A DNA stretch of 64,000 bases from an uncultured delta proteobacterium (GCA_963774705.1 CAVZFW010000010.1:323706-387705); one strand, 5' to 3'; shown: positions 30,421 through 43,222, counted from the stretch's first letter. Numbers and translations are program-made. Notes: generated by a model from the sequence alone, not told the origin.

Positions 30421-31797
30421 ATGCCCGGTCACCTGGGGAAACATGCCATCGTCATCGGTGGCAGTATCGCGGGCCTGATGGCCGCTCGTGTGCTCACCGA
30501 CTATTTCGAACAGGTGACCGTGCTCGATCGCGACCATATCGAAGCGCAACCCGCCGTGCACAAATCGGTCCCTCAGGGAAATCATCTGCACGCCTTGATG
30601 CTGGGTGGTCAACAGGTGTTGTCGTCGCTCTTTCCGGACTTCACCGATCGGCTGCAAAAGCTCGGGGCAGTGCGCTTTCGCTTCGGCATCGAAGCCGCCT
30701 TCTTCTTTCCGGGCGGCCGCTCCTACACCCCGACCGGATCGGTGCGGGAACCGCGCGACCTCGGTATCGACGGCTATAGTCAGAGCCGCGGCCTGCTCGA
30801 ATTTTGTGTGCGGCAGTGCGCTCTCGAGCTGCCCAATCTGAAGTTCACCGGCGACGCCGCAGTGCAAGGCCTGATATATGAGAACGGGCAGGTGCGCGGC
30901 GTGCGTTTCACTCGCGACGGTGCCACCGATTCGATCGCCGCCGACCTCGTGGTGGACGCCGGCGGGCGTGGTTCGCGCGCTCCGCGATGGCTCACGGAGA
31001 TGGGTTTCCAAACCCCCGAAGAAACCACCATCGGTTGCGATTTCGCATACAGCAGCGCCAAGTTTCGTAAGCCGGCCAACTATGACGCGCCCGAAAAGGT
31101 CATGCTCTTCGGTGGGCCGCCACCCAAATACACCAACGGCGCCGGCATCGGCAGTATTGAGAATGACACCTGGATGGTCAGCCTGGCGGGGCGCTTCGGC
31201 GTTTATCCGCCGACCGATGAGGCCGGTTTCTTCGAGTTCGCCAAATCGCTCCCGACCAAGCGGTTTTACGAGTTGATCGAGGATGCAGAGCGCTTGACCG
31301 AGATCACCCAGCATCGTTTTCCGACCAGCGTGCAACGTCATTACGAGCGTCTGTCGGCCTTTCCGGAGCGGTTCGTGATTCTGGGCGACGCCATCAGCAG
31401 CTTCAACCCAGTCTATGGGCAAGGGATGAGCTCGGCAGCTTTGCAGGTCCGGGCGCTCCAGCAACTGCTGGGCGAACGCGCCGCGGGCACCCGGGCAAAC
31501 GGACTCGATCGGTTGGGCATGGCCTTTTTCCCGAAAGCGGCGGAGGTAATCGCATCCCCGTGGTTTCTCGCGGCAGCCTCGGATTTTGCCTATCCGCAGA
31601 CTAGCGGCGAGCGCCCGCCCAATATGGAGGATGGCGGACGCTATTTCGCGGCGCTCGATTCGCTGGTTGCCGAAGATCCGGCCGTCCATCGAATACTGGT
31701 CGAAGTCTTCCAGTTGGCGCGCCCGTTATGGGAGCTGACGTCCGATCCGTTGCGCAGCCGCGTCATCGCGCGCCAGGAAGCCCTCGCCGCCAAGTGA
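30421..31797 (+). CDS. FAD-dependent oxidoreductase/monooxygenase
   Basis: AIVIGGSIAGLMAARVL dinucleotide-binding motif, VVDAGGRGS, ILGDAISSFNPVYGQGMS. GAAGGAG RBS. Confidence 0.7.
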   Translation: MPGHLGKHAIVIGGSIAGLMAARVLTDYFEQVTVLDRDHIEAQPAVHKSVPQGNHLHALMLGGQQVLSSLFPDFTDRLQKLGAVRFRFGIEAAFFFPGGRSYTPTGSVREPRDLGIDGYSQSRGLLEFCVRQCALELPNLKFTGDAAVQGLIYENGQVRGVRFTRDGATDSIAADLVVDAGGRGSRAPRWLTEMGFQTPEETTIGCDFAYSSAKFRKPANYDAPEKVMLFGGPPPKYTNGAGIGSIENDTWMVSLAGRFGVYPPTDEAGFFEFAKSLPTKRFYELIEDAERLTEITQHRFPTSVQRHYERLSAFPERFVILGDAISSFNPVYGQGMSSAALQVRALQQLLGERAAGTRANGLDRLGMAFFPKAAEVIASPWFLAAASDFAYPQTSGERPPNMEDGGRYFAALDSLVAEDPAVHRILVEVFQLARPLWELTSDPLRSRVIARQEALAAK

Positions 31798-32433
31798 CGC
31801 AGCGGGTTGCGCCTCCGAGATATGTGCAGTTGCGGCGACTTCGACCGCCACGTTCGGCTCAACCTTGAAAAACAGGATGCTTGGATCCTTGAGTCCCCAC
31901 GCCACGTAAGGAATTGCAAAGCGGCAGCGGATGGTCGCGTCTTCGCCGCGCCGCTCGACAGTTGCCGTGACCGTGAATGGATGCGGTGCGCCGTGGAGCG
32001 TCATCACGCCGCGCACAACTACCGGAAATTCGCCCCGCGGCTCGCCATGACTCTCGACCTGCTGCGGCGCGAAACTCATTTCGGGAAAGCTCGCCGCCTC
32101 GAGGATGCTGTCCTTCATGCGGGCGTCGCGCACGGTGTAGCCACTGTCGCCGCTGGCCGCATCGACCACGATTTCACCGGCCATTTTTCCGGTCGTCGCG
32201 TCGACGCGGATCACGCCGCTCTTTAGCTTGAACGTGCCGTCGGTGACATGCGGCCAACCGATTAGCTTGTAGGCGATCGTCGTATGCGCTGTATCGAACG
32301 TGAGCGACGTCCACCTGCGAGCGACGGAATCCGCGGCGGTTTGACCATTAACCCGCGCGACCACTTGCACCATCAGCCCGATCGTCATGATCGATGAGAG
32401 TGCGAGTCTCGCTATCGGTCGCGTCGTTTTCAC
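31726..32433 (-). CDS. YceI family periplasmic protein
   Basis: GTG 32433 (VKTTRPIARLALSSIMTIGLMVQVVA signal-like). FDTAHTTIAYKLIGWPHVTDGTFKLKSGVIRVD...RDARMKDSILEAASFPEMSF...GVMTLHG are YceI signatures. The track merges it with the upstream remnant into one 376-aa ORF. Confidence 0.7.
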   Translation of the reverse strand: MKTTRPIARLALSSIMTIGLMVQVVARVNGQTAADSVARRWTSLTFDTAHTTIAYKLIGWPHVTDGTFKLKSGVIRVDATTGKMAGEIVVDAASGDSGYTVRDARMKDSILEAASFPEMSFAPQQVESHGEPRGEFPVVVRGVMTLHGAPHPFTVTATVERRGEDATIRCRFAIPYVAWGLKDPSILFFKVEPNVAVEVAATAHISEAQPAASLGGEGFLARDDAAAQRIGRQLP

Positions 32434-32915
32434 CCTGGGACGGGACTCTGAACCAGCGGCTCGGCGGCTATCAGATGCCGGATGAATCCCGCGACTGCGC
32501 CGAGCGGTGCGGACGTTATTGGTGCGCCTCCAGCATGCACGCCCAGCATGAACGTGAACAGCCGCCAACGCCGTGAGCACACGATGGCGAAGGCTGTGGC
32601 GACCGCTCACCAGCAGCATCAACTCCACCATCAATTCAGGCGGCCGGCTGATTATCCGATGCGCGCGCTCATATCCGCGGAGATTGCCGCTTGCGATCGA
32701 GTCGGCGAGCGCAACCGCGTGCTTGAAGCCCAAAGCGAGACCTTCTCCCGTCAGGGCATCCACCGCGCCGGCTGCATCACCGATTAACGCCACCCGCTTC
32801 GTTACCACTAAGCGCATCACGCTGGAACCGCATATCGCGCCCCACACGTCACTCAAAGGTACTATCTGCCGGCCGAACGCGACCGGCCCGCTATTATCAC
32901 AAAACAGGTTTATTA
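32431..32915 (-). pseudogene. 5'-truncated and frameshifted remnant of an FAD-dependent (geranylgeranyl-reductase-like) oxidoreductase
   Basis: Only the C-terminal part is present (VALIGDAAGAVDALTGEGLALGF GD-motif). A stop lies at ~32916 and there is no room for the ~250-aa N-terminal FAD domain. The 3' end reads sensibly only after a 1-nt shift near 32563 (..ALFTFMLGVHAGG...PVPG*), whose TGA overlaps the YceI GTG as GTGA. Confidence 0.55.
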
Positions 32916-33284
32916 ATCCTCAGCGCAGTCAGAATGTGTCTCCTCAACGAGTGTCAGAAAGTCGGCGATTCGGGCAATTACCAAAAATATTTTTTGCATG
33001 TGGGGCGATCAGACAGATCTAGACTCGTGATTGTGCATAGATGCAATCCTTTGCAAAACCGGTCAATCTTAACTCCTTCCGCGCAACGTGCTAATTTTCC
33101 TACGTCGTGGGGTTTGAGGGGGTGGATGCGGAGGGAATGCCTGCTCCAACTATAATCGCCTTCAGTCGTCCTTCGATCAGTATCGCCGCTCGGACGGCAT
33201 CCACCTCGCTCGCCCATCTGTTCGCGAAATTTGAGTGCATCGAATTTTCGCCAACGCGGAAGTTCCGTGCAGAACCTTCAACGT

Positions 33285-33322
33285 AAATTTAACTGGGAGC
33301 AAATTTAACTGGGGGCAAAATT
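33285..33322. repeat. tandem 16-nt direct repeat aaatttaactggg(a/g)gc x2 plus a partial third unit, immediately upstream of ATG 33331
   Basis: Read directly: aaatttaactgggagc aaatttaactgggggc aaaatt. Confidence 0.85.
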
Positions 33323-33330
33323 CAAGGGAG

Positions 33331-34137
33331 ATGGATCTGATCAAGCATTTCACTCAAGCCAAGGTTGAACCCGTTGCGGCGCCGGCCCCGATGCCGCCAC
33401 TCAAGAGCGCAACTCCGCAACCGTTGCCACCCCACCTGATCGAGGGTAACGGCAACGAACCAAGAATCTACTCGGTGCGCAAAATGCTCGAAAATCTCCC
33501 TCCCGATTCGGGTCCGGTCGTCCAGTCGCTCGAACAGGGCGCCGCGCCAATGACCAACCCGGGCTGCGATCCTTCGTCCGAGCGTCCCGAGGGGCTGGCA
33601 GGGGCCGTGCTGTCGTACGTCGAACATGACGGCGCCGCCGATTACCAGGTGTTTCAGGCGGTTGCGAAACTGTTCGAACAGACGCAGGCCGCGCGCCAGC
33701 AGTTGAATAATCTCGGCGCGATGTACGACTCGATCGAAGGGCTCGCGCAGACCGTCGCCGCGACCTTCGTACCGCTCGACGCGTTCCGCCAGCAGCTCGA
33801 GCAACTCGCGCGCAATTTCGTCCCGATCAAGGCTTTGCAGCAGGAGATGGCGCGTATCGCACAGACCTGCGACGCGATCCGGCCGCTGCAGGATCAGTTT
33901 TCGCAACTCACTGGTGGCTTCAACGTCCATATCCTCGCGCTGATGAAGGCGCTCGAACCAGCCGAGGAAGTCCGGCTGCGAATCCTCCAACTTGCGGAAA
34001 CGTTTGAACCGCTGACCACGCTGCATGAGCGGCTCGGCGACCTCAAGGGAGCGTTCGACGGTGGCGCGAATGGCGCCGTTGATCATGTGAACGGAGAAGG
34101 CTCGGCGGTCATGTTTTACGTCGCCAAGAGCGCGTGA
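33331..34137 (+). CDS. hypothetical helical-repeat protein (Pro-rich N-terminus, repeated F-x-P-[LI] helical motif)
   Basis: The plus frame has G/C-rich third positions; the antisense ORF 33322-34167 is Arg-rich and typical of a shadow. Repeats: TFVPLDAFRQQLEQLA, NFVPIKALQQEMARIA, AIRPLQDQFSQL, TFEPLTTLHERLGDL. The start is uncertain (GTG 33235 or ATG 33331). Confidence 0.5.
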   Translation: MDLIKHFTQAKVEPVAAPAPMPPLKSATPQPLPPHLIEGNGNEPRIYSVRKMLENLPPDSGPVVQSLEQGAAPMTNPGCDPSSERPEGLAGAVLSYVEHDGAADYQVFQAVAKLFEQTQAARQQLNNLGAMYDSIEGLAQTVAATFVPLDAFRQQLEQLARNFVPIKALQQEMARIAQTCDAIRPLQDQFSQLTGGFNVHILALMKALEPAEEVRLRILQLAETFEPLTTLHERLGDLKGAFDGGANGAVDHVNGEGSAVMFYVAKSA

Positions 34138-34229
34138 GTCGATCGGCCGCGCGACGCTGCGTGGCACTTCGGCGCGCCTAGAGATCTACCCCTGGAACAA
34201 GTCGCGCAAAATGGATCGGAGGACCAGGT

Positions 34230-37200
34230 TTAATGCGCGCTGTTGGATAGTCCGCCAAATGACGAAAAGATCCCTTGTAGGGCATGGGGGAATTGCGCCC
34301 CAAGAAGCGTCAGAATCGGCAGTAGACCGAAAACGACCAGTTGCCACACAAAGCCGCTATTCCAGTTCAACTCACCGGGTGTGGTGCCCGAGAGCATGCT
34401 GACCACGCGGTCACGATTGATTTGAACGAAGATCAAAACGATCACGCCGATGACGCTTAAGAGAATTATCCAACTGAGCGACGCAACCGTATCGTGTTGC
34501 GGAAAAGGATAGCTCGAGACGGCGAGCATCAGGGCGAGCAGGCCCACGCTGGTAAAGATCATCAGGTTCATTTGCTGAGGAAATACCTGCTGCAGGAAAC
34601 CGACCACGCGGCTGGCGATGAATAACTCACTATTTTTGATCAGCGACTCTTCCAGGTCGGGTGTATTCTCCCGAGCCGGTCGGGCGGAGAGGTGGGCCTC
34701 GCGATCGAGCCGCCACCACGGCTCGAAGATTTCCGTAATCACTCTCGAAAGGCGGCTAATCTCGCCTTGCAGGACAATTCTACCGTTGATCACGGAGCGC
34801 CAGACACCGGCGGCCTGGTTGGCGAGGAGCGTGTTCAAAGTGATTTGAGCCGCTTGAATCAGTTCCGCCAGCTCGACGCGCCTGGCGCTAAGGCGGGCGG
34901 CAAGCGTGCCTGACGGAAAAGCTGGGGGCGGTGCTTTAGCGGCGTCGTCTGGAGGTTCGACCTGCCGGAGCATCTCCCTCGCACGCCCCAGGCAGAATTC
35001 TACCGCGATCATATTGTCCGCGGGCGCGACCAACGGAATGTGCTGTCGATCGGCCATCGAAGGCGCCACGCTGCCAGTGCGCAACTCCTCATAAACGCCG
35101 CGTGTCGGGTGCATCGCCAGGCGGCGCAGCAGCGATCGCAATTCCCACCATACGGCGATGAAGCGTCCGAGCATCAGGAGAAACGATGTGTAGACAAAGG
35201 TCGCGATGCCGATGAAGAACAGCGTGAACACTTGACCATCGAGCGCAATCAGCTTGAATCCCGGCATGTCGAGCAGAATATAGACCACCACGGGCAGCAC
35301 CAACCATAACGCCCAGAATGGAATCTCGTCAGTCGGGCATTTGAGCAAATGAACAATGGCACGCTCGTTGAGGGCAATACCAGTGAAAGAGCCGCTATGG
35401 CCGAAACCCAGGAAATCGAAGTTGAGCACGTATTCTTCGGTAAGGTTCGTTCGCCACAATTCGCTCACGCTCAACCACAATGCTGCAATCCCGATATACA
35501 GCATCGGCAATAGCGGGGAGACGCCGTTCCAAAGGTTTGCCGCGCGCACGAAGTAGAACAGTGCTGGAAGAGGATCCTGCCGCCAGATCGAGATCGCGAA
35601 TATAATCGCGATTCCTACTCCGATTAAGCTCGCGATAAATCTCAGGGCCGCGGTCCACGAGGCCTTTCTCAAGAGAATCATCGAGGTGGCGCGGCGCGAA
35701 GCCTCGCCGCGAACCACTGTGGTCTGCCTGTCCTTATCCAGGATGAGCCCCACCAGACCGAGCACAATCACTACACCCCCGATCAGCGTCGGACCGAGCG
35801 CCCAGACGAGCAGTCCAAAGTTGTCGCCAACGGTGACGAACCAGCGCGACGAATTGTCCGGCGCCCACAAACTCATCGCACGTAAAGGCAGCAGCCATAT
35901 AGCGCTCGCGACCAGAAAGAACGTCAGCAGAACGAGCACGAAAGATAAGAGGCTCAGTTCGCGATCCGTGCGGTTGACGGTTTTCGGATCAGTCGGATCG
36001 TCGAGGAGACGCACGAACCAACGCGGCGGTGTTGGAATAACTTGTCCAAGGGCGCGATAGAGCCCGCCCACCCCGTCGTTCGTCATCGCATGCCATTTGA
36101 TCATGTAAAGGTGAGGCAGCGTGCACAGCAGGACGATCATCGCAAACGTAATATCGAATTGACGGGGGTAAATGCTCACGCCGAAATTCTTCGGGAGATA
36201 TCCAGCCGTTCGGGGCGGTTGGTGACGCTTCACCACGTGAGCACCCGGCGGGCTTTGAAAAACCGTTACAGGCCACAGTGCGCCGTTGCCAACGACCGTC
36301 AACCACATGGGCGGAGCCGGCGATGCGCTCGAAAAGGGCAGGGTGTACTCCACCATCAGTTTCGTGTCGTCCACGGCGGCGAGAACGGCGTTGTACACCC
36401 CCTCAGCCTCACTGCTGGGAAACTGGAAACGGCGGTAGTCCAGACTGGAGGGCCAGGTCCACAGCTGATTTGACGCGAAAAGCGGATAGGTGGAGAAAAT
36501 CAGCGTGCCGACGAGGTCCCGATTAAAGTCGGAATGCAGATAGAGCAAATCGGACGAAGCCAGAAACGGGGTCGTGTCGGGACAGTTGCTGCGGATCTCG
36601 CGAATCAGGAAGATGGCGTCCTGGATATTGGTCGCGATGATCCCGACGTAGTGGAAGTTTTCCCGATTGATGGTCGAGAGCAGGTTGGCGAGCACCATTT
36701 CATCGTCAGCGGCGGAAGCGCGCGAGAATGAAGGCACAAAGTACCGATCAAGGCCCGGATCCTCGTCGGAAATCGGCAGATCACGGTGCGAAAGGCCAAG
36801 CGGAGTCGCAGCCGGATTGGCCTGCTGGACCCGCGAACTATCGAAAGTTGTTCGCACGTTGGAAATGTGAATCGGATAGGGGAGAAACGTAACTGCCGAA
36901 TGGTTGCCGGCTTTGCGCCTCTTATAGCGAACTATGCGAGAGTTCCCATCGATGGAATTCCCGTAAGCGGTATCGTCGGTGAGTATCGCGAGGCGTGGAT
37001 CGCTCAGGTTTTCCTGAAAAAATCGAATCAAGCCGTCGTAGGTCTGTGCGTCTGGCAGCTCGGTTGACTGAAATTCCCCCAGTTCGGTCGGCCAGTCATC
37101 GATCGCGGTCGCGCTTCCGGACAGCAGCGAAATCGAGATGGGCGGAGTTGGCTGCTGAAGTCCGCCGAAGTACAGCCACGAACGTAGAACCTCCTTGATT

Positions 37201-37985
37201 GATGGAGCCGACCCGGAATAGCTGGGCCCGAGGATCTCGATCAGATTGGCACTTCGCGGGGGACCCTTGGGATCGTTCCGCGCCAGATCAACCAGATGCG
37301 CCGGCGCGGACGTCTCGCCTGCGCCACGCCATCCACGCAACCACGCGATTTGATCGAGCGCGCTGCGCAGCGCGGGCGCGTTGACTCCCGAGGTGGGAGT
37401 CTCCCCGACCACAAAGACCACCATGAGACTAACGCGCGCGGGATGGTTAGCGTCTGCGGTGTCGGCCCGCCGGAACAGCATAACGCCGGGGCGCCGTGAT
37501 CTCTGCGCCGGAGTGGTGCCTTCGGCGGAAAGTTGATCCACCCACGGCAAGGTGGCCTTCGCAAGCATGTAGTTTTCGTGGCTGAGCGCTAGCTGGATCG
37601 AATCGATGTAGCGATCGAATTCGTAGCGCAGCGACGGATTCTCCGGATTGGGTAGTGTTGCGATGAGGAATGAAATTCGATCGTTACGACGCGGATCATC
37701 CGGATTCCACGCGCCGTTGGGACCCGGATAATTCGGCGCACTCTGCTGCCACGGTTTATCCCGATCGATGAACTGATCTGCGTCAGCATCGAAGAAATCC
37801 TCAAGCAGGTCGCGCGCGCTGATTTCGTCGCCCGATACCTTCGTGTCTTTCGCATTAGGCAGCGATATCGACGAGGACGGTTTCGACGACATTACCAGGG
37901 GAGCGCCGATGCCAAAGAAGGCAAGAAGTATGAAAAAAATTGTCGCCGGCGACATGCCGGCGCCTTTGCCGGAGCCTTCGGGCAT
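34230..37985 (-). CDS. hypothetical ~1250-aa polytopic membrane protein with large N-terminal extracytoplasmic periplasmic-binding-protein-like domain
   Basis: Longest ORF in the window. TM1 is ATIFFILLAFFGIGAPLVM. It is followed by a ~600-aa ectodomain with PBP1-like beta-alpha blocks, about 7 TM helices, a ~190-aa soluble helical segment, and 3 C-terminal TM helices. ATG 37985 is preferred to the track TTG 37991. Confidence 0.6.
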   Translation of the reverse strand: MPEGSGKGAGMSPATIFFILLAFFGIGAPLVMSSKPSSSISLPNAKDTKVSGDEISARDLLEDFFDADADQFIDRDKPWQQSAPNYPGPNGAWNPDDPRRNDRISFLIATLPNPENPSLRYEFDRYIDSIQLALSHENYMLAKATLPWVDQLSAEGTTPAQRSRRPGVMLFRRADTADANHPARVSLMVVFVVGETPTSGVNAPALRSALDQIAWLRGWRGAGETSAPAHLVDLARNDPKGPPRSANLIEILGPSYSGSAPSIKEVLRSWLYFGGLQQPTPPISISLLSGSATAIDDWPTELGEFQSTELPDAQTYDGLIRFFQENLSDPRLAILTDDTAYGNSIDGNSRIVRYKRRKAGNHSAVTFLPYPIHISNVRTTFDSSRVQQANPAATPLGLSHRDLPISDEDPGLDRYFVPSFSRASAADDEMVLANLLSTINRENFHYVGIIATNIQDAIFLIREIRSNCPDTTPFLASSDLLYLHSDFNRDLVGTLIFSTYPLFASNQLWTWPSSLDYRRFQFPSSEAEGVYNAVLAAVDDTKLMVEYTLPFSSASPAPPMWLTVVGNGALWPVTVFQSPPGAHVVKRHQPPRTAGYLPKNFGVSIYPRQFDITFAMIVLLCTLPHLYMIKWHAMTNDGVGGLYRALGQVIPTPPRWFVRLLDDPTDPKTVNRTDRELSLLSFVLVLLTFFLVASAIWLLPLRAMSLWAPDNSSRWFVTVGDNFGLLVWALGPTLIGGVVIVLGLVGLILDKDRQTTVVRGEASRRATSMILLRKASWTAALRFIASLIGVGIAIIFAISIWRQDPLPALFYFVRAANLWNGVSPLLPMLYIGIAALWLSVSELWRTNLTEEYVLNFDFLGFGHSGSFTGIALNERAIVHLLKCPTDEIPFWALWLVLPVVVYILLDMPGFKLIALDGQVFTLFFIGIATFVYTSFLLMLGRFIAVWWELRSLLRRLAMHPTRGVYEELRTGSVAPSMADRQHIPLVAPADNMIAVEFCLGRAREMLRQVEPPDDAAKAPPPAFPSGTLAARLSARRVELAELIQAAQITLNTLLANQAAGVWRSVINGRIVLQGEISRLSRVITEIFEPWWRLDREAHLSARPARENTPDLEESLIKNSELFIASRVVGFLQQVFPQQMNLMIFTSVGLLALMLAVSSYPFPQHDTVASLSWIILLSVIGVIVLIFVQINRDRVVSMLSGTTPGELNWNSGFVWQLVVFGLLPILTLLGAQFPHALQGIFSSFGGLSNSAH

Positions 37986-38313
37986 TATCAATCCGTTCGC
38001 CCTGATTGCTCAGGGCGCATTACGCTGGCGGCGATAACCGCCGTTCATGATGAATTTAATGGGATTCCAACGGCACGCCGATCGCGTGCCGCGAAAGACC
38101 CTCCCCTTTTGTCTATTGAGCCGTATAGCAGTCGAGTTGCTGCAAAGCAATTTTGCACCACCATTTTGGAACGTTATAAGGCATCGATGCGCGAGCGATC
38201 GAATCGCGCGTCCCGTCAATGCGCGAGATGTGCCAGTCGGAGTGGGCGCGCTCACAAAGCGCGCGCCGTCTAAAGTGTCCCGGCGAGCCGGATTCGTTCA
38301 GGCGCGAAGAGAA

Positions 38314-38736
38314 TCAATGCGGAGCGCGCAAGAGCTGATTGACCTGCGAGCGGACGCGCGCAACGCGCGCTGCCTGCTCCGCTTCTTCGTATTCCGGATC
38401 GAACATGCTGAGGTGCGAGAGCCGCTCCTCGGCCGGTGCGATTTCGTTTTGCGCGGCGAGGCTATCGACCGCGACAGGCGCTTGCGCTTCCAGCGCCAGC
38501 ACCGTCATCACTCCGTCCTTGATTTCGGCCAAACCGCCCACCAGCAGGAACTCCTCGAATTTCGCCTCACTCAGCTTGATGGTCAGGATTCCCGGGACCA
38601 GCGACGTGATGAAATTGGTATGCAGCGGCAGTACGCCGAACTCGCCCAGCGCACCGACCGCGGTGACTTGCTCGACCGCGCCGTCAAACAACACGCCGGT
38701 GGGAGTAACCAGCTTGAACTGAAAGGTGTCAGCCAT
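38314..38736 (-). CDS. atpC: F0F1 ATP synthase subunit epsilon
   Basis: FKLVTPTGVLFDGAVEQVTAVGALGEFGVLPLHTNFITSL. Follows atpD. Confidence 0.9.
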   Translation of the reverse strand: MADTFQFKLVTPTGVLFDGAVEQVTAVGALGEFGVLPLHTNFITSLVPGILTIKLSEAKFEEFLLVGGLAEIKDGVMTVLALEAQAPVAVDSLAAQNEIAPAEERLSHLSMFDPEYEEAEQAARVARVRSQVNQLLRAPH

Positions 38737-38745
38737 CGTGATGGG

Positions 38746-41090
<2,345 letters not shown>

Positions 41091-41125
41091 TCGTCAGGTG
41101 TTCGCGGTAATGCCGGCGAGCCCCG

Positions 41126-42661
41126 TCACGCCGCGTGGGCATCGCTGGACGGAGGCGTCCGGGTGCTGGTGAAGTTATCGAGCGCAGCGGCCAAGCGCTT
41201 GCGCAAATCGTCGCTAATTTCGCGCTTGGTAGCGATTTCTTCCAGAATGTCTTTGTGACGAGCTTCGAAAAACGCGTACAAATCGTGTTCGAACGGCTTC
41301 ACCTGATCGACCTCGAGCTTGTCGAAGTAACCTTCGTTGGCGGCGAATATGATCAGCACTTCCTTGTCGGTGGACAACGGATCGTACTGATTCTGCTTGA
41401 GCATCTCGGTCAGCCGCTCGCCGCGATGGAGCAGGCGCTGACTGGCCGGATCGAGATCCGAGCCGAACTGCGCAAACGCCGCCATCTCGCGATACTGCGC
41501 GAGGTCAAGCTTGAGCGTGCCGCCGACCTGTTTCATCGCCTTGATCGCGGCCGAAAAGCCGACCCGCGAGACCGACAGACCGACGTTCACCGCCGGCCGG
41601 ATGCCTGAATAGAAAAGGTCGGCGTCGAGCACGATCTGCCCGTCGGTAATCGAGATGACGTTAGTCGGAATATAGGCCGAAACGTCGCCCGCCTGCGTTT
41701 CGATAATAGGCAGCGCAGTGAGCGAGCCGCCACCCATCTCAGCGGAAAGTTTCGCCGCGCGTTCGAGCAGGCGTGAATGAAGATAGAAGACGTCGCCTGG
41801 ATAAGCCTCGCGCCCGGGCGGACGGCGGAGCAACAGCGAGAGCTGGCGATACGCGGTCGCGTGTTTACTCAAATCGTCGTAAACCAGCAGCGCATGACGC
41901 CCGCTGTCGCGGAAGTACTCGCCCATCGTGCAGCCCGAGTACGGCGCGATGAACTGCAGCGGGGCCGATTCGGAAGCGGTCGCGGCAACGACGGTGGTAT
42001 ACTCCATCGCACCGTAGCGATTGAGCTTTTCGACCACCTGCGCGACGGTCGAGCGTTTCTGCCCGATCGCGACGTAAACACAAAAGACGTTCTGACCCTT
42101 CTGGTTGATGATGGTGTCGATCGCCAGCGCCGTCTTGCCGGTCTGCCGGTCGCCGATGATCAGCTCGCGCTGCCCGCGGCCGATTTGCAACATCGAATCG
42201 ATCGCCTTGATGCCGGTCTGCATCGGCTCCTTGACCGGTTGGCGCTTGATGATGCCGGGGGCCTTGATTTCGATGCGGCGCGTTTCGGTGCTCTTGATAG
42301 GACCCTTGTCGTCGATTGGCTGGCCTAGTGAATTGACGACGCGGCCGAGCAGCGCCTCGCCGACCGGAACTTCCGCGATACGGCCGGTGCGCTTCACTTC
42401 GTCGCCCTCGCCGATCGCCTGTGGATCGCCAAAGAGCGCCGCGCCGACGTTGTCCTCTTCGAGATTCAGCACCATGCCGTACACGGAATGAGGAAACTCG
42501 AGCAGCTCGCCGGAGGCGGCGTTCTGCAGGCCGTAAATGCGCGCGATACCGTCGCCGCATGACAATACGCGGCCGGTTTCGCGCACTTCGACCGAGCCCT
42601 CGAAGCCCTTGATCTCACTGCGCAGAATGTCGCTGATTTCAGATGGTCTGATTTCCGCCAT
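41126..42661 (-). CDS. atpA: F0F1 ATP synthase subunit alpha
   Basis: GDRQTGKTA Walker [43 protein letters not shown]. Confidence 0.97.
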
Positions 42662-42685
42662 AGATGTGTTTCCGCGTGCCCGCGC

Positions 42686-43222
42686 CTAGCCGCTCAGACG
42701 CCGTTCGGCGTCGGCCAGCCGGGTGGCAAGGCTGCCGTCGTAGATTTTTCCTTCCAGCTCGGCGACGACGCCGCCCACCAGCGACGCGTCAACCTTGGTC
42801 GTCGGGATAATTGTCTTCTGCACAATTGCCGCCAGTCCTTCCACCACACGGGCCAGATCCTCGTCGGTCGGCGGATAAGCAAACGTAAGCTTCGCGCGAG
42901 CGCGGCCCATCAGATCATCGAGCATGCGTGCATAGCTTTCGGCCATCGCGGTGACGTTGGCAACGCGGCCATGATTCGCGACTACCACCGCGAACGACCG
43001 CAGAGGGAAACTCAGATCGAGCCGCTCGGCGATTTTACCTAACGCCTCCATCCGCAATGCCTGCGTCACCGACGGCGATTCCAGTTGCGCCGCGACTTCC
43101 GGGGAATCGACGATCCGCGCCAGGCGTTCTAGCTCGGCGCCCCACGCTTCGAGCTGCGCGTGATCGGTCGAGAGACCCATCAGGGCGCGCGCATAGCGCT
43201 TGGCGACCTTTGAGCTTTTCAA
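42686..43222 (-). CDS. atpH: F0F1 ATP synthase subunit delta (OSCP)
   Basis: VAKRYARAL..., ...GGVVAELEGKIYDGSLATRL. Position between b and alpha. Confidence 0.9.
   Translation of the reverse strand: MKSSKVAKRYARALMGLSTDHAQLEAWGAELERLARIVDSPEVAAQLESPSVTQALRMEALGKIAERLDLSFPLRSFAVVVANHGRVANVTAMAESYARMLDDLMGRARAKLTFAYPPTDEDLARVVEGLAAIVQKTIIPTTKVDASLVGGVVAELEGKIYDGSLATRLADAERRLSG

Follow-up and report, generated by a model that had tools for sequence, protein, structure and literature searches.

A predicted Venus-flytrap ectodomain tethered to a ten-helix membrane module without a recognized relative in a large family of hypothetical bacterial proteins

The gene and the predicted anatomy of its product

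The subject of this report is one gene in a 64,000-nucleotide stretch of DNA from an uncultured delta proteobacterium (GCA_963774705.1 CAVZFW010000010.1:323706-387705), which we call the window and whose positions are counted from its first letter. The gene lies on the minus strand at 34230..37991 and is the longest open reading frame (ORF) of the region, as had been said in an earlier reading made from the sequence alone (the sequence-only reading), and the peptide blocks quoted from it in that reading are all found at the positions claimed. We conclude with high confidence that the product is an inner-membrane protein consisting of an anchor helix, a tethered flytrap domain of the type found in leucine/isoleucine/valine-binding proteins (LIVBP), and a compact module of seven plus three transmembrane (TM) helices with a cytoplasmic insert between TM8 and TM9. 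The features are as follows.

34230..37991, minus strand: ORF as listed, 1253 amino acids from a TTG codon; stop codon at 34230-34232
37890..37946, minus strand: TM1, residues 16-34, ATIFFILLAFFGIGAPLVM, from hydropathy and the lysine-plus-arginine (K+R) bias of the family
37692..37889, minus strand: N-terminal tether, residues 35-100, poorly conserved and mostly of low model confidence
36258..37691, minus strand: type-1 periplasmic binding protein (PBP) or Venus-flytrap domain, two-lobed, predicted periplasmic, residues 101-578, from AlphaFold2, Foldseek and conservation
36156..36257, minus strand: C-terminal tether, residues 579-612, of low conservation
35157..36155, minus strand: TM2 to TM8, seven helices, residues 613-945, from hydropathy, conservation and model; helices on the minus strand at residues 613-631, 685-703, 732-750, 785-803, 824-845, 889-907 and 921-945 (Kyte-Doolittle)
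34572..35156, minus strand: predicted cytoplasmic all-helical domain, residues 946-1140, opening with the basic motif LRxLLRRLxxHP (951-962)
34233..34571, minus strand: TM9 to TM11 plus a C-terminal helix, residues 1141-1253, highly conserved; helices on the minus strand at residues 1141-1159, 1171-1189 and 1214-1232 (Kyte-Doolittle)

Helices were called by a Kyte-Doolittle hydropathy scan, which gives eleven hydrophobic helices in the order TM1, a region of ~580 residues predicted to be periplasmic, seven TM helices, a predicted cytoplasmic helical domain of ~195 residues, and three TM helices. The architecture read by hand (TM1, ectodomain, seven helices, helical segment, three helices) was right in every block. 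K+R density was measured loop by loop over 115 aligned family members.

Predicted cytoplasmic: the N-terminus, residues 632-684, 751-784, 846-888, the start of 946-1140, and 1190-1213; K+R 0.11-0.18 per residue
Predicted periplasmic: the edges of 35-612, residues 704-731, 804-823, 908-920, 1160-1170, and the C-terminus; K+R 0.04-0.13 per residue

The positive-inside rule is satisfied by the query and across the 115 relatives, and the contrast in K+R density between the two sets of loops leads us to predict that region 35-612 lies outside the cell, so that hydropathy and charge bias agree with the extracytoplasmic ectodomain of the sequence-only reading. The extracytoplasmic location that goes with a type-1 PBP is also predicted from the flanking of the domain by TM1 and TM2. 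TM1 would act as a signal anchor whose N-terminus stays inside, or else as a signal peptide that can be cleaved off.

Most of 17 aligned relatives begin at or beside a Met that aligns to ORF residue 3 (MPEGS in the closest), and the true start is therefore probably the ATG at 37985-37983, giving 1251 amino acids, which is also the length of a relative with 90% identity (P0001). The ratio of nonsynonymous to synonymous substitution rates (dN/dS) is 0.12 against the copy in locus L087 and 0.21 against that in L088; thus, the gene is real and under purifying selection. Its G+C content at third codon positions (GC3) is 0.69, compared with 0.77-0.81 for atpA, atpG, atpD and atpC. The claim that it uses more A/T-ending codons than the atp genes is thus numerically right, yet the value falls within the range of the window (0.65-0.83).

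Folds of the two halves and extent of the family

The ectodomain (residues 36-615) was modelled with AlphaFold2 from an alignment containing 58 homologues, with a predicted template modelling score (pTM) of 0.83 and a mean predicted local distance difference test score (pLDDT) of 75.8; low-confidence stretches are limited to both ends and a few insertions. A Foldseek search with this model returned 404 matches in PDB at E<=1e-3, the leading ones with probability 1.00, and the top 50 listed of these 404 are all LIVBP-type binding proteins or flytraps of class-C, GABA-B, T1R or NMDA receptors. Among the matches are binding proteins of ATP-binding cassette (ABC) importers (R. palustris 4eyg/4ey3 and 4evq, LivK 3td9, LivJ 1z15/1usg, Atu2422 and UrtA), the amide receptor AmiC, and the flytraps of mGluR2/3/8, GABA-B, fish T1R and the NMDA-receptor amino-terminal domain. 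The best bacterial matches have E 5e-9 and a TM-score of 0.55-0.60 normalized to the target, and the strand-helix order of the model agrees with the type-1 pattern. As modelled, the ectodomain is of the type-1 PBP/ANF-receptor (Venus-flytrap) fold, at the fold level only, and the bilobed PBP fold suggested by the sequence-only reading is upheld.

The superfamily is recognized in the fold, and the sequence does not place the protein in Peripla_BP_6/ANF_receptor. The full protein gave no match at E<=1 to Pfam Peripla_BP_6, ANF_receptor or Peripla_BP_5 (PF13458, PF01094, PF13433), 12 ectodomains searched against Pfam at E<=10 gave a single Peripla_BP_6 match (1/12, E 0.14) and otherwise noise, and a family profile built from the ectodomain (A7) found no PDB sequence at E<=10.

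The flytrap domain (101-578) is the best-conserved portion of the protein, and the most conserved residues lie, across phyla, in loops at the C-terminal ends of strands.

Residues 112-116: TLPDP, conserved loop
37386..37406, minus strand, residues 196-202: GETPTxG motif, invariant or nearly so, used as the family search pattern
37209..37229, minus strand, residues 255-261: GPSYSGS loop (GPSxSGS in the family), a strand-to-helix turn
37104..37121, minus strand, residues 291-296: SGSATA loop, conserved
36960..36971, minus strand, residues 341-344: TAYG loop (TxYG in the family), conserved
Residues 373-380: PxHIS..R, conserved loop
Residues 453-458: ATD..D, conserved loop
36531..36557, minus strand, residues 479-487: SSDLLYLHS loop, Asp481 invariant in an 18-sequence alignment (A5)

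Ser259, Thr295, Tyr343 and Asp481 are invariant or nearly so in the family. The sequence of E. coli LivJ used for comparison was checked against a protein database, where annotated LivJ entries matched it at 99-100% identity; a search for its homologues gave only sequences at least 85% identical and hence no diverse LIVBP profile. An hhalign alignment of the family ectodomain with LivJ is non-significant (probability about 2%, E about 0.03), and in that same non-significant alignment GPSFSGS stands in register with LivJ GHLCSSS, SGSATA with TPAATA, and TxYG with QQYG, pairing Ser259 with LivJ Ser79, Thr295 with Thr102, and Tyr343 with Tyr150. Asp481 pairs with the LivJ GPEG loop (Glu226) by fold topology alone. 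Ser79, Thr102, Tyr150 and Glu226 are among the ligand contacts of LivJ, and the cleft loops of the family may correspond to the ligand-contact loops of LivJ. Because the cleft residues are conserved and fall in the LivJ register, they suggest that the ligand is small and polar, akin to an amino acid or amide, and the same across the family; this is a lead rather than a test. LivJ-like genes were sought in the window and in the fetched loci, and none was found there.

Both tethers are of a different character. The N-terminal one contains a single short conserved helix, AxxLLxxFF, at about residues 58-67, and the C-terminal one has pLDDT <50 from about residue 594, while the blocks before that point average 69-77.

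The membrane half, modelled separately (residues 596-1253; mean pLDDT 89.8, pTM 0.89), consists of ten long helices and the all-helical cytoplasmic insert, and the ten helices are predicted to form one compact module, in which the seven pack together with the other three. Foldseek found no PDB match for this model at E<=1e-3 (best E 0.16, probability 0.08, TM-score about 0.1) and no match in BFVD, and no fold match to GPCR, rhodopsin, LeuT, MFS, ABC, GT-C or channel structures is among the results. Nine membrane halves searched against Pfam at E<=10 gave noise only, and the membrane-half family profile (A8) found nothing meaningful among PDB sequences. The membrane half is thus unmatched in PDB, BFVD, Pfam and NCBIfam, in agreement with the earlier view that the protein can be placed in no family. 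The best-conserved motifs of the module are rich in Pro, Gly and Ser, several of them on the periplasmic face, and Arg816, Arg943 and His961 are invariant and Asp1194 nearly so.

Predicted periplasmic-face motifs: FxRAxxLxSGVSPLLP (residues 814-829, 35505-35552, with the invariant Arg816), a DG turn (918-919), SSYPF (1159-1163) and PILxLLGAQFP (1225-1235)
Predicted cytoplasmic-face motifs: LRRL, SFxG..E, LRxLLRRLxxHP (951-962) and NRDxVxSxLxGTTPG (1192-1206)

Searches with the full protein against Pfam, NCBIfam, PADLOC and PDB chain sequences gave a best E of 0.05, which is noise, and all PDB sequences, searched by phmmer and with three family profiles (whole, A7 and A8), yielded nothing beyond transmembrane or coiled-coil noise. 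No part of the protein matched a characterized family in these searches, no confident full-length match was found, and no kinase, cyclase, HAMP, ABC or channel signature appeared in Pfam, NCBIfam, PADLOC or PDB sequences, all as the sequence-only reading had proposed.

Its description of the protein as an orphan does not stand. A word-indexed search found at least 120 full-length relatives, all called "hypothetical" and without a Pfam domain, and 1.84 billion cluster representatives (clusters at 50% identity), searched with a profile of the full length, yielded 6,506 clusters at E<=1e-3, of which 3,248 reached E<=1e-30. Among the best 150 of the 6,506 clusters, most span the whole profile; those that are shorter are partial and look like gene fragments. 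The query, 120 listed homologues and the six longest members were free of any recognized output domain (kinase, MCP, GGDEF/EAL, cyclase or HAMP); the six longest reach 1410-1507 amino acids, still without a recognizable extra domain. A scan of GTDB with one genome per species and the single pattern [VI]GETPTxG[VI][DNH] confirmed relatives in 181 stretches (at least 181 species genomes). The 80 loci returned of these 181 all come from metagenome-assembled genomes (MAGs), whose labels include Terriglobia, Blastocatellia, Bryobacteraceae, Binatia/Binataceae, Gemmataceae, Pirellulales, Isosphaeraceae, Anaeromyxobacter, Polyangiaceae, Gemmatimonadaceae and others. Two copies occur in some MAGs (L034 with L037, L016 with L041), and tblastn found no relative encoded on PLSDB plasmids. 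All source-given names seen for the family are "hypothetical protein," and a search of the literature found no description of such a protein.

Surroundings of the gene in Binataceae and in other lineages

The genes for the ATP synthase F1 subunits delta, alpha, gamma, beta and epsilon lie directly before the gene (38314-43222, minus strand), which follows atpA-atpG-atpD-atpC on the same strand after a 328-nucleotide spacer. The order atpD-atpC-gene is kept in L087 (90% target identity), L088 (66%), L007 (61%) and L083 (43%, labelled Candidatus Binataceae), and AtpD is 90-100% identical across these four loci. Thus, the window derives from an organism resembling Binataceae, and the gene is a long-standing resident there and not a recent insertion. 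The sequence-only reading had hinted at a foreign segment; because the atp order is kept among Binataceae relatives down to 43% protein identity and the drop in GC3 is modest, a foreign island is rejected as unsupported.

37986..38313, minus strand: spacer between atpC and the gene, with a conserved block, GCTATACG(A/G)CT, about 145 nucleotides before the ATG and GC-rich hairpins in the leader

The block GCTATACG(A/G)CT is conserved in four Binataceae relatives and is possibly, on weak grounds, a -10 element. The hairpins lie in the leader of ~145 nucleotides, for example CGCCCTGAGCAATCAGGGCG just ahead of the start; RNAalifold on four sequences gave 17 pairs, four of them with compensatory changes, so that covariation is weak. 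An Rfam scan of the 5' region gave no family matches, and a sub-threshold Glutamine-II match was rejected as being on the wrong strand. The 328-nucleotide gap and the promoter-like block make the proposed monocistronic gene plausible here, whereas elsewhere the gene lies within 10 nucleotides of its neighbors.

Downstream, synteny with L087 and L088 is broken, and a DUF1329 gene comes next there instead. The window has two overlapping ORFs on opposite strands at this site, 33235-34137 (plus strand, about 300 amino acids) and 33322-34167 (minus strand, 281 amino acids); neither has a family match, and the plus-strand one gave only weak coiled-coil-type matches. In L087, which is 90% identical, a different gene occupies the same site, and its counterpart in L088 is the DUF1329 gene. 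Further on, in an ORF at 31726-32856 (minus strand), a short piece from the C-terminal part of a FAD_binding_3 monooxygenase (residues 19-56) is followed by a YceI domain (186-343); this ORF is probably the truncated gene remnant mentioned in the sequence-only reading. In L001 and L006, the loci of P0007 and P0005 (61-62% identical), the gene stands away from atp, among insertion sequence (IS)/transposase and resolvase fragments and large zinc-ribbon, guanylate-cyclase and AAA_16 proteins.

Neighbors in other lineages were compared by clustering ORFs from 87 loci. ABC ATPase genes occur near 14 of the 87, at variable distance and on either strand. At 19 Acidobacteriota loci, mostly labelled Terriglobia and with 24-96% target identity (L012, L015, L017-L019, L021-L023, L025, L026, L028, L029, L038, L039, L043, L046, L056, L057 and L070), the family gene is clustered with five others within about 10 kb on either side, in two different gene orders.

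Acidobacteriota cluster: cholesterol-oxidase-like GMC fusion, about 1130 amino acids
Acidobacteriota cluster: VAO/sugar-lactone-oxidase-like FAD enzyme, 451 amino acids, often ending 9 nucleotides before the family gene
Acidobacteriota cluster: S8 subtilase; metallophosphoesterase; uncharacterized protein of 721 amino acids

None of these five partners has an obvious signal peptide, and the VAO-type oxidase bears a weak likeness to DprE1. In three loci, a 145-amino-acid DUF4231/SLATT_1 protein is encoded 24 nucleotides downstream of the family gene (L025:13429-13866, L026:13678-14115 and L043:13453-13890); SLATT is a two-helix effector domain of nucleotide-signalling conflict systems. In Blastocatellia, an extracytoplasmic function (ECF) sigma factor lies 63-141 nucleotides downstream on the same strand (L004/L005/L061/L062, about 11906-15283 in L004; L014:13783-14400), followed in L004/L005/L061 by a zf-HC2/FecR anti-sigma factor of ~890 amino acids, and the L003/L004 group has a divergent PALP+ACT threonine-dehydratase-like gene upstream. 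A Solibacteraceae MAG encodes an amidohydrolase that ends 4 nucleotides upstream of the family gene (L077:8543-9736), and in a Gemmataceae MAG a C-N hydrolase gene overlaps the stop codon of the family gene by 3 nucleotides (L071:13660-14757). These last two linkages fit a ligand that is a small nitrogen compound, in two loci only.

Candidate functions and what the family may mean

We propose, with a probability of roughly 0.4, that the protein is a one-polypeptide, binding-protein-dependent device for solute uptake with an amino-acid- or amide-like ligand. The flytrap would capture a small, polar molecule (the likely candidates are alpha-amino acids and related amides or nitrogen compounds), shut around it, and dock on the periplasmic face of the module (the Arg816/SGVSPLLP loop, SSYPF and LLGAQFP); the module would then pass the solute, a step on which the cytoplasmic helical domain may act as a gate or regulator. 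With no ATPase in the protein itself and none regularly encoded near it, transport would have to be secondary or facilitated, and because the linkers 35-100 and 579-612 are variable and modelled with low confidence, the flytrap would act as a tethered docking domain rather than a rigid lever. Translocation is favored because most polytopic proteins that have ten helices or more are transporters, the architecture is fixed, and the gene is tightly linked to cytoplasmic enzymes of catabolic type; such linkage in several lineages (GMC/VAO, amidohydrolase, C-N hydrolase and threonine-dehydratase-like enzymes) supports uptake.

The family shares with LIVBP-type proteins (LivJ/LivK, the R. palustris aromatic-acid binders, Atu2422, UrtA and AmiC) a two-lobed alpha/beta flytrap predicted to be extracytoplasmic, and its conserved Ser, Thr, Tyr and Asp may fall in the loops that canonically line the cleft. 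It differs from them in that the similarity is below sequence detection (no Pfam and no PDB-sequence match), insertions make the domain larger by about 130 residues, both of its ends are covalently tied to a membrane protein where those proteins are free or lipid anchored, and there is no LivHMGF-type ABC partner. The favored mechanistic model is the fused ABC importer of the OpuA or GlnPQ type, in which a solute-binding domain is likewise flexibly tethered to its membrane partner. Those importers have type-2 binding domains, BPD_transp permease folds and ABC ATPases, whereas the family shows no permease or ABC signature, and no ABC ATPase is consistently nearby; the BPD_transp permease and ABC ATPase, fused or alongside, that define an ABC importer dependent on a solute-binding protein (SBP) are thus not found. 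The membrane half also has no Pfam or NCBIfam match to subunits of tripartite ATP-independent periplasmic (TRAP) transporters (DctQ/DctM) or tripartite tricarboxylate transporters (TTT; TctA/TctB).

Several observations weigh against uptake. The module matches no known transporter fold and carries no transport signature of any kind, and block-against-block hhalign within it found no internal repeat, a feature typical of most secondary transporters. Few conserved charged residues lie inside its helices. No neighbor is conserved at all of the 87 loci, some neighborhoods resemble signalling loci (ECF sigma and anti-sigma factors; DUF4231/SLATT with phosphoesterase and subtilase), and the residue correspondence with LivJ comes from the non-significant alignment and from topology.

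The main rival, rather unlikely in our estimate, is a receptor without enzymatic output: closure of the flytrap would be relayed through the bundle to the ~195-residue cytoplasmic domain, which would signal by protein-protein contact, e.g., with an anti-sigma factor. A flytrap, a polytopic bundle and a conserved cytoplasmic helical domain parallel the logic of class-C G-protein-coupled receptors (GPCRs), and the scarcity of membrane charges, the lack of a transporter-like repeat, the ECF sigma factor in Blastocatellia with an anti-sigma factor next to it in L004/L005/L061, and the clustering in Terriglobia with DUF4231/SLATT, metallophosphoesterase and S8 subtilase all accord with it. However, sensor modules are usually found shuffled onto varied outputs, and the invariable absence of output domains in the members inspected would be unusual for one. 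No response regulator, kinase or cyclase is consistently nearby in the 87 loci, the flexible tethers disfavor a rigid mechanical relay, and the cleft hardly varies across phyla, in contrast to sensors, whose ligands usually diversify.

In BvgS-type kinases, in chemoreceptors and cyclases linked to a PBP, and in ANF-receptor guanylyl cyclases, one or two TM helices are combined with a recognizable output (HisKA/HATPase, MCPsignal, GGDEF or cyclase); the family shares with such PBP-containing sensors a periplasmic flytrap as input module, and differs in having eleven TM helices and no recognized output. The bacterial seven-helix receptors of the 7TMR-DISM and similar types, reportedly described by Anantharaman and Aravind in 2003, also place a large extracytoplasmic domain before seven helices, but the family matches none of their Pfam models, and the outputs of 7TMR-DISM proteins vary whereas the architecture of the family is fixed. 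Interactions between SBPs and receptors have been surveyed elsewhere (PMC8050422).

A membrane-embedded enzyme that modifies lipids or the envelope, with the PBP-like domain holding a periplasmic substrate as in other polytopic enzymes with periplasmic domains, is improbable. It would account for the invariant Arg816, Arg943 and His961, the near-invariant Asp1194, and the Pro/Gly motifs on both membrane faces, and the cholesterol-oxidase-like and weakly DprE1-like enzymes beside the Terriglobia genes are in keeping with it; nevertheless, no GT-C, acyltransferase, ligase or flippase match was found by sequence or fold.

Improbable to about the same degree is a ligand-gated channel, in which an oligomeric ten-helix module would be a pore opened by the flytrap in the manner of ionotropic glutamate receptors (iGluRs). 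Flytrap domains do gate pores in iGluRs, the NMDA-receptor amino-terminal domains are among the fold matches of the ectodomain, the logic of a ligand-controlled membrane module is alike in iGluRs and GluR0, and the module has conserved Gly/Pro-rich motifs. Set against this, neither a Lig_chan nor a potassium-channel-like pore signature, nor a channel fold match, was found, and iGluRs and GluR0 have a Lig_chan pore domain and a type-2 ligand-binding domain, both of which the family lacks.

A true bacterial homologue of class-C GPCRs, with a flytrap and a homologous 7TM domain, is essentially excluded: exactly seven helices follow the flytrap and profile matches to GPCR sequences exist at noise level (E 0.65-9.4), but there is no 7TM_3 Pfam match and no significant GPCR or rhodopsin fold match (among the seven-helix receptors listed, Smoothened ranks first, with E 3.3 and probability 0.03), the seven helices are modelled as packing with three others in a single module, and the protein has only four cysteines, none of them in the 579-612 linker, which excludes a cysteine-rich domain. 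The likening to class-C GPCRs (mGluR, GABA-B, T1R) in the sequence-only reading therefore holds for architecture, in which a flytrap from the shared superfamily precedes a polytopic helical domain, and fails for homology, since the family has neither the 7TM_3 domain by sequence or fold nor the cysteine-rich linker, and has in addition a TM helix at the N-terminus, an insert in the cytoplasm and three further helices, in bacteria.

The known part of these proteins is the fold of the ectodomain; the membrane module, its fusion to the flytrap, and the family are undescribed in the libraries and literature searched, and the module has a substantial chance of defining a functional class of its own. 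That an ancient LIVBP-type flytrap hard-wired to a ten-helix module without a characterized relative represents a new class of bacterial membrane machine, either secondary transporters or output-less receptors, in Acidobacteriota, Binatota, Planctomycetota, Myxococcota and Gemmatimonadota, comes close to an even chance in our judgment, and such a class would have been overlooked because its carriers, as far as seen, are uncultured. The family comprises more than 6,500 clusters at 50% identity from dominant soil phyla without a Pfam, NCBIfam or PDB relative, and the combination of a recognizable ligand-binding fold with a confidently predicted but unmatched membrane fold offers a testable entry point. 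If solute uptake through the module is correct, the family would extend binding-protein-dependent uptake by a new mechanism distinct from ABC, TRAP and TTT systems; if signalling is correct, it would reproduce class-C receptor logic in bacteria by means of an unrelated helix bundle. Naming the family would annotate a large block of genes in Acidobacteriota and Binatia MAGs.

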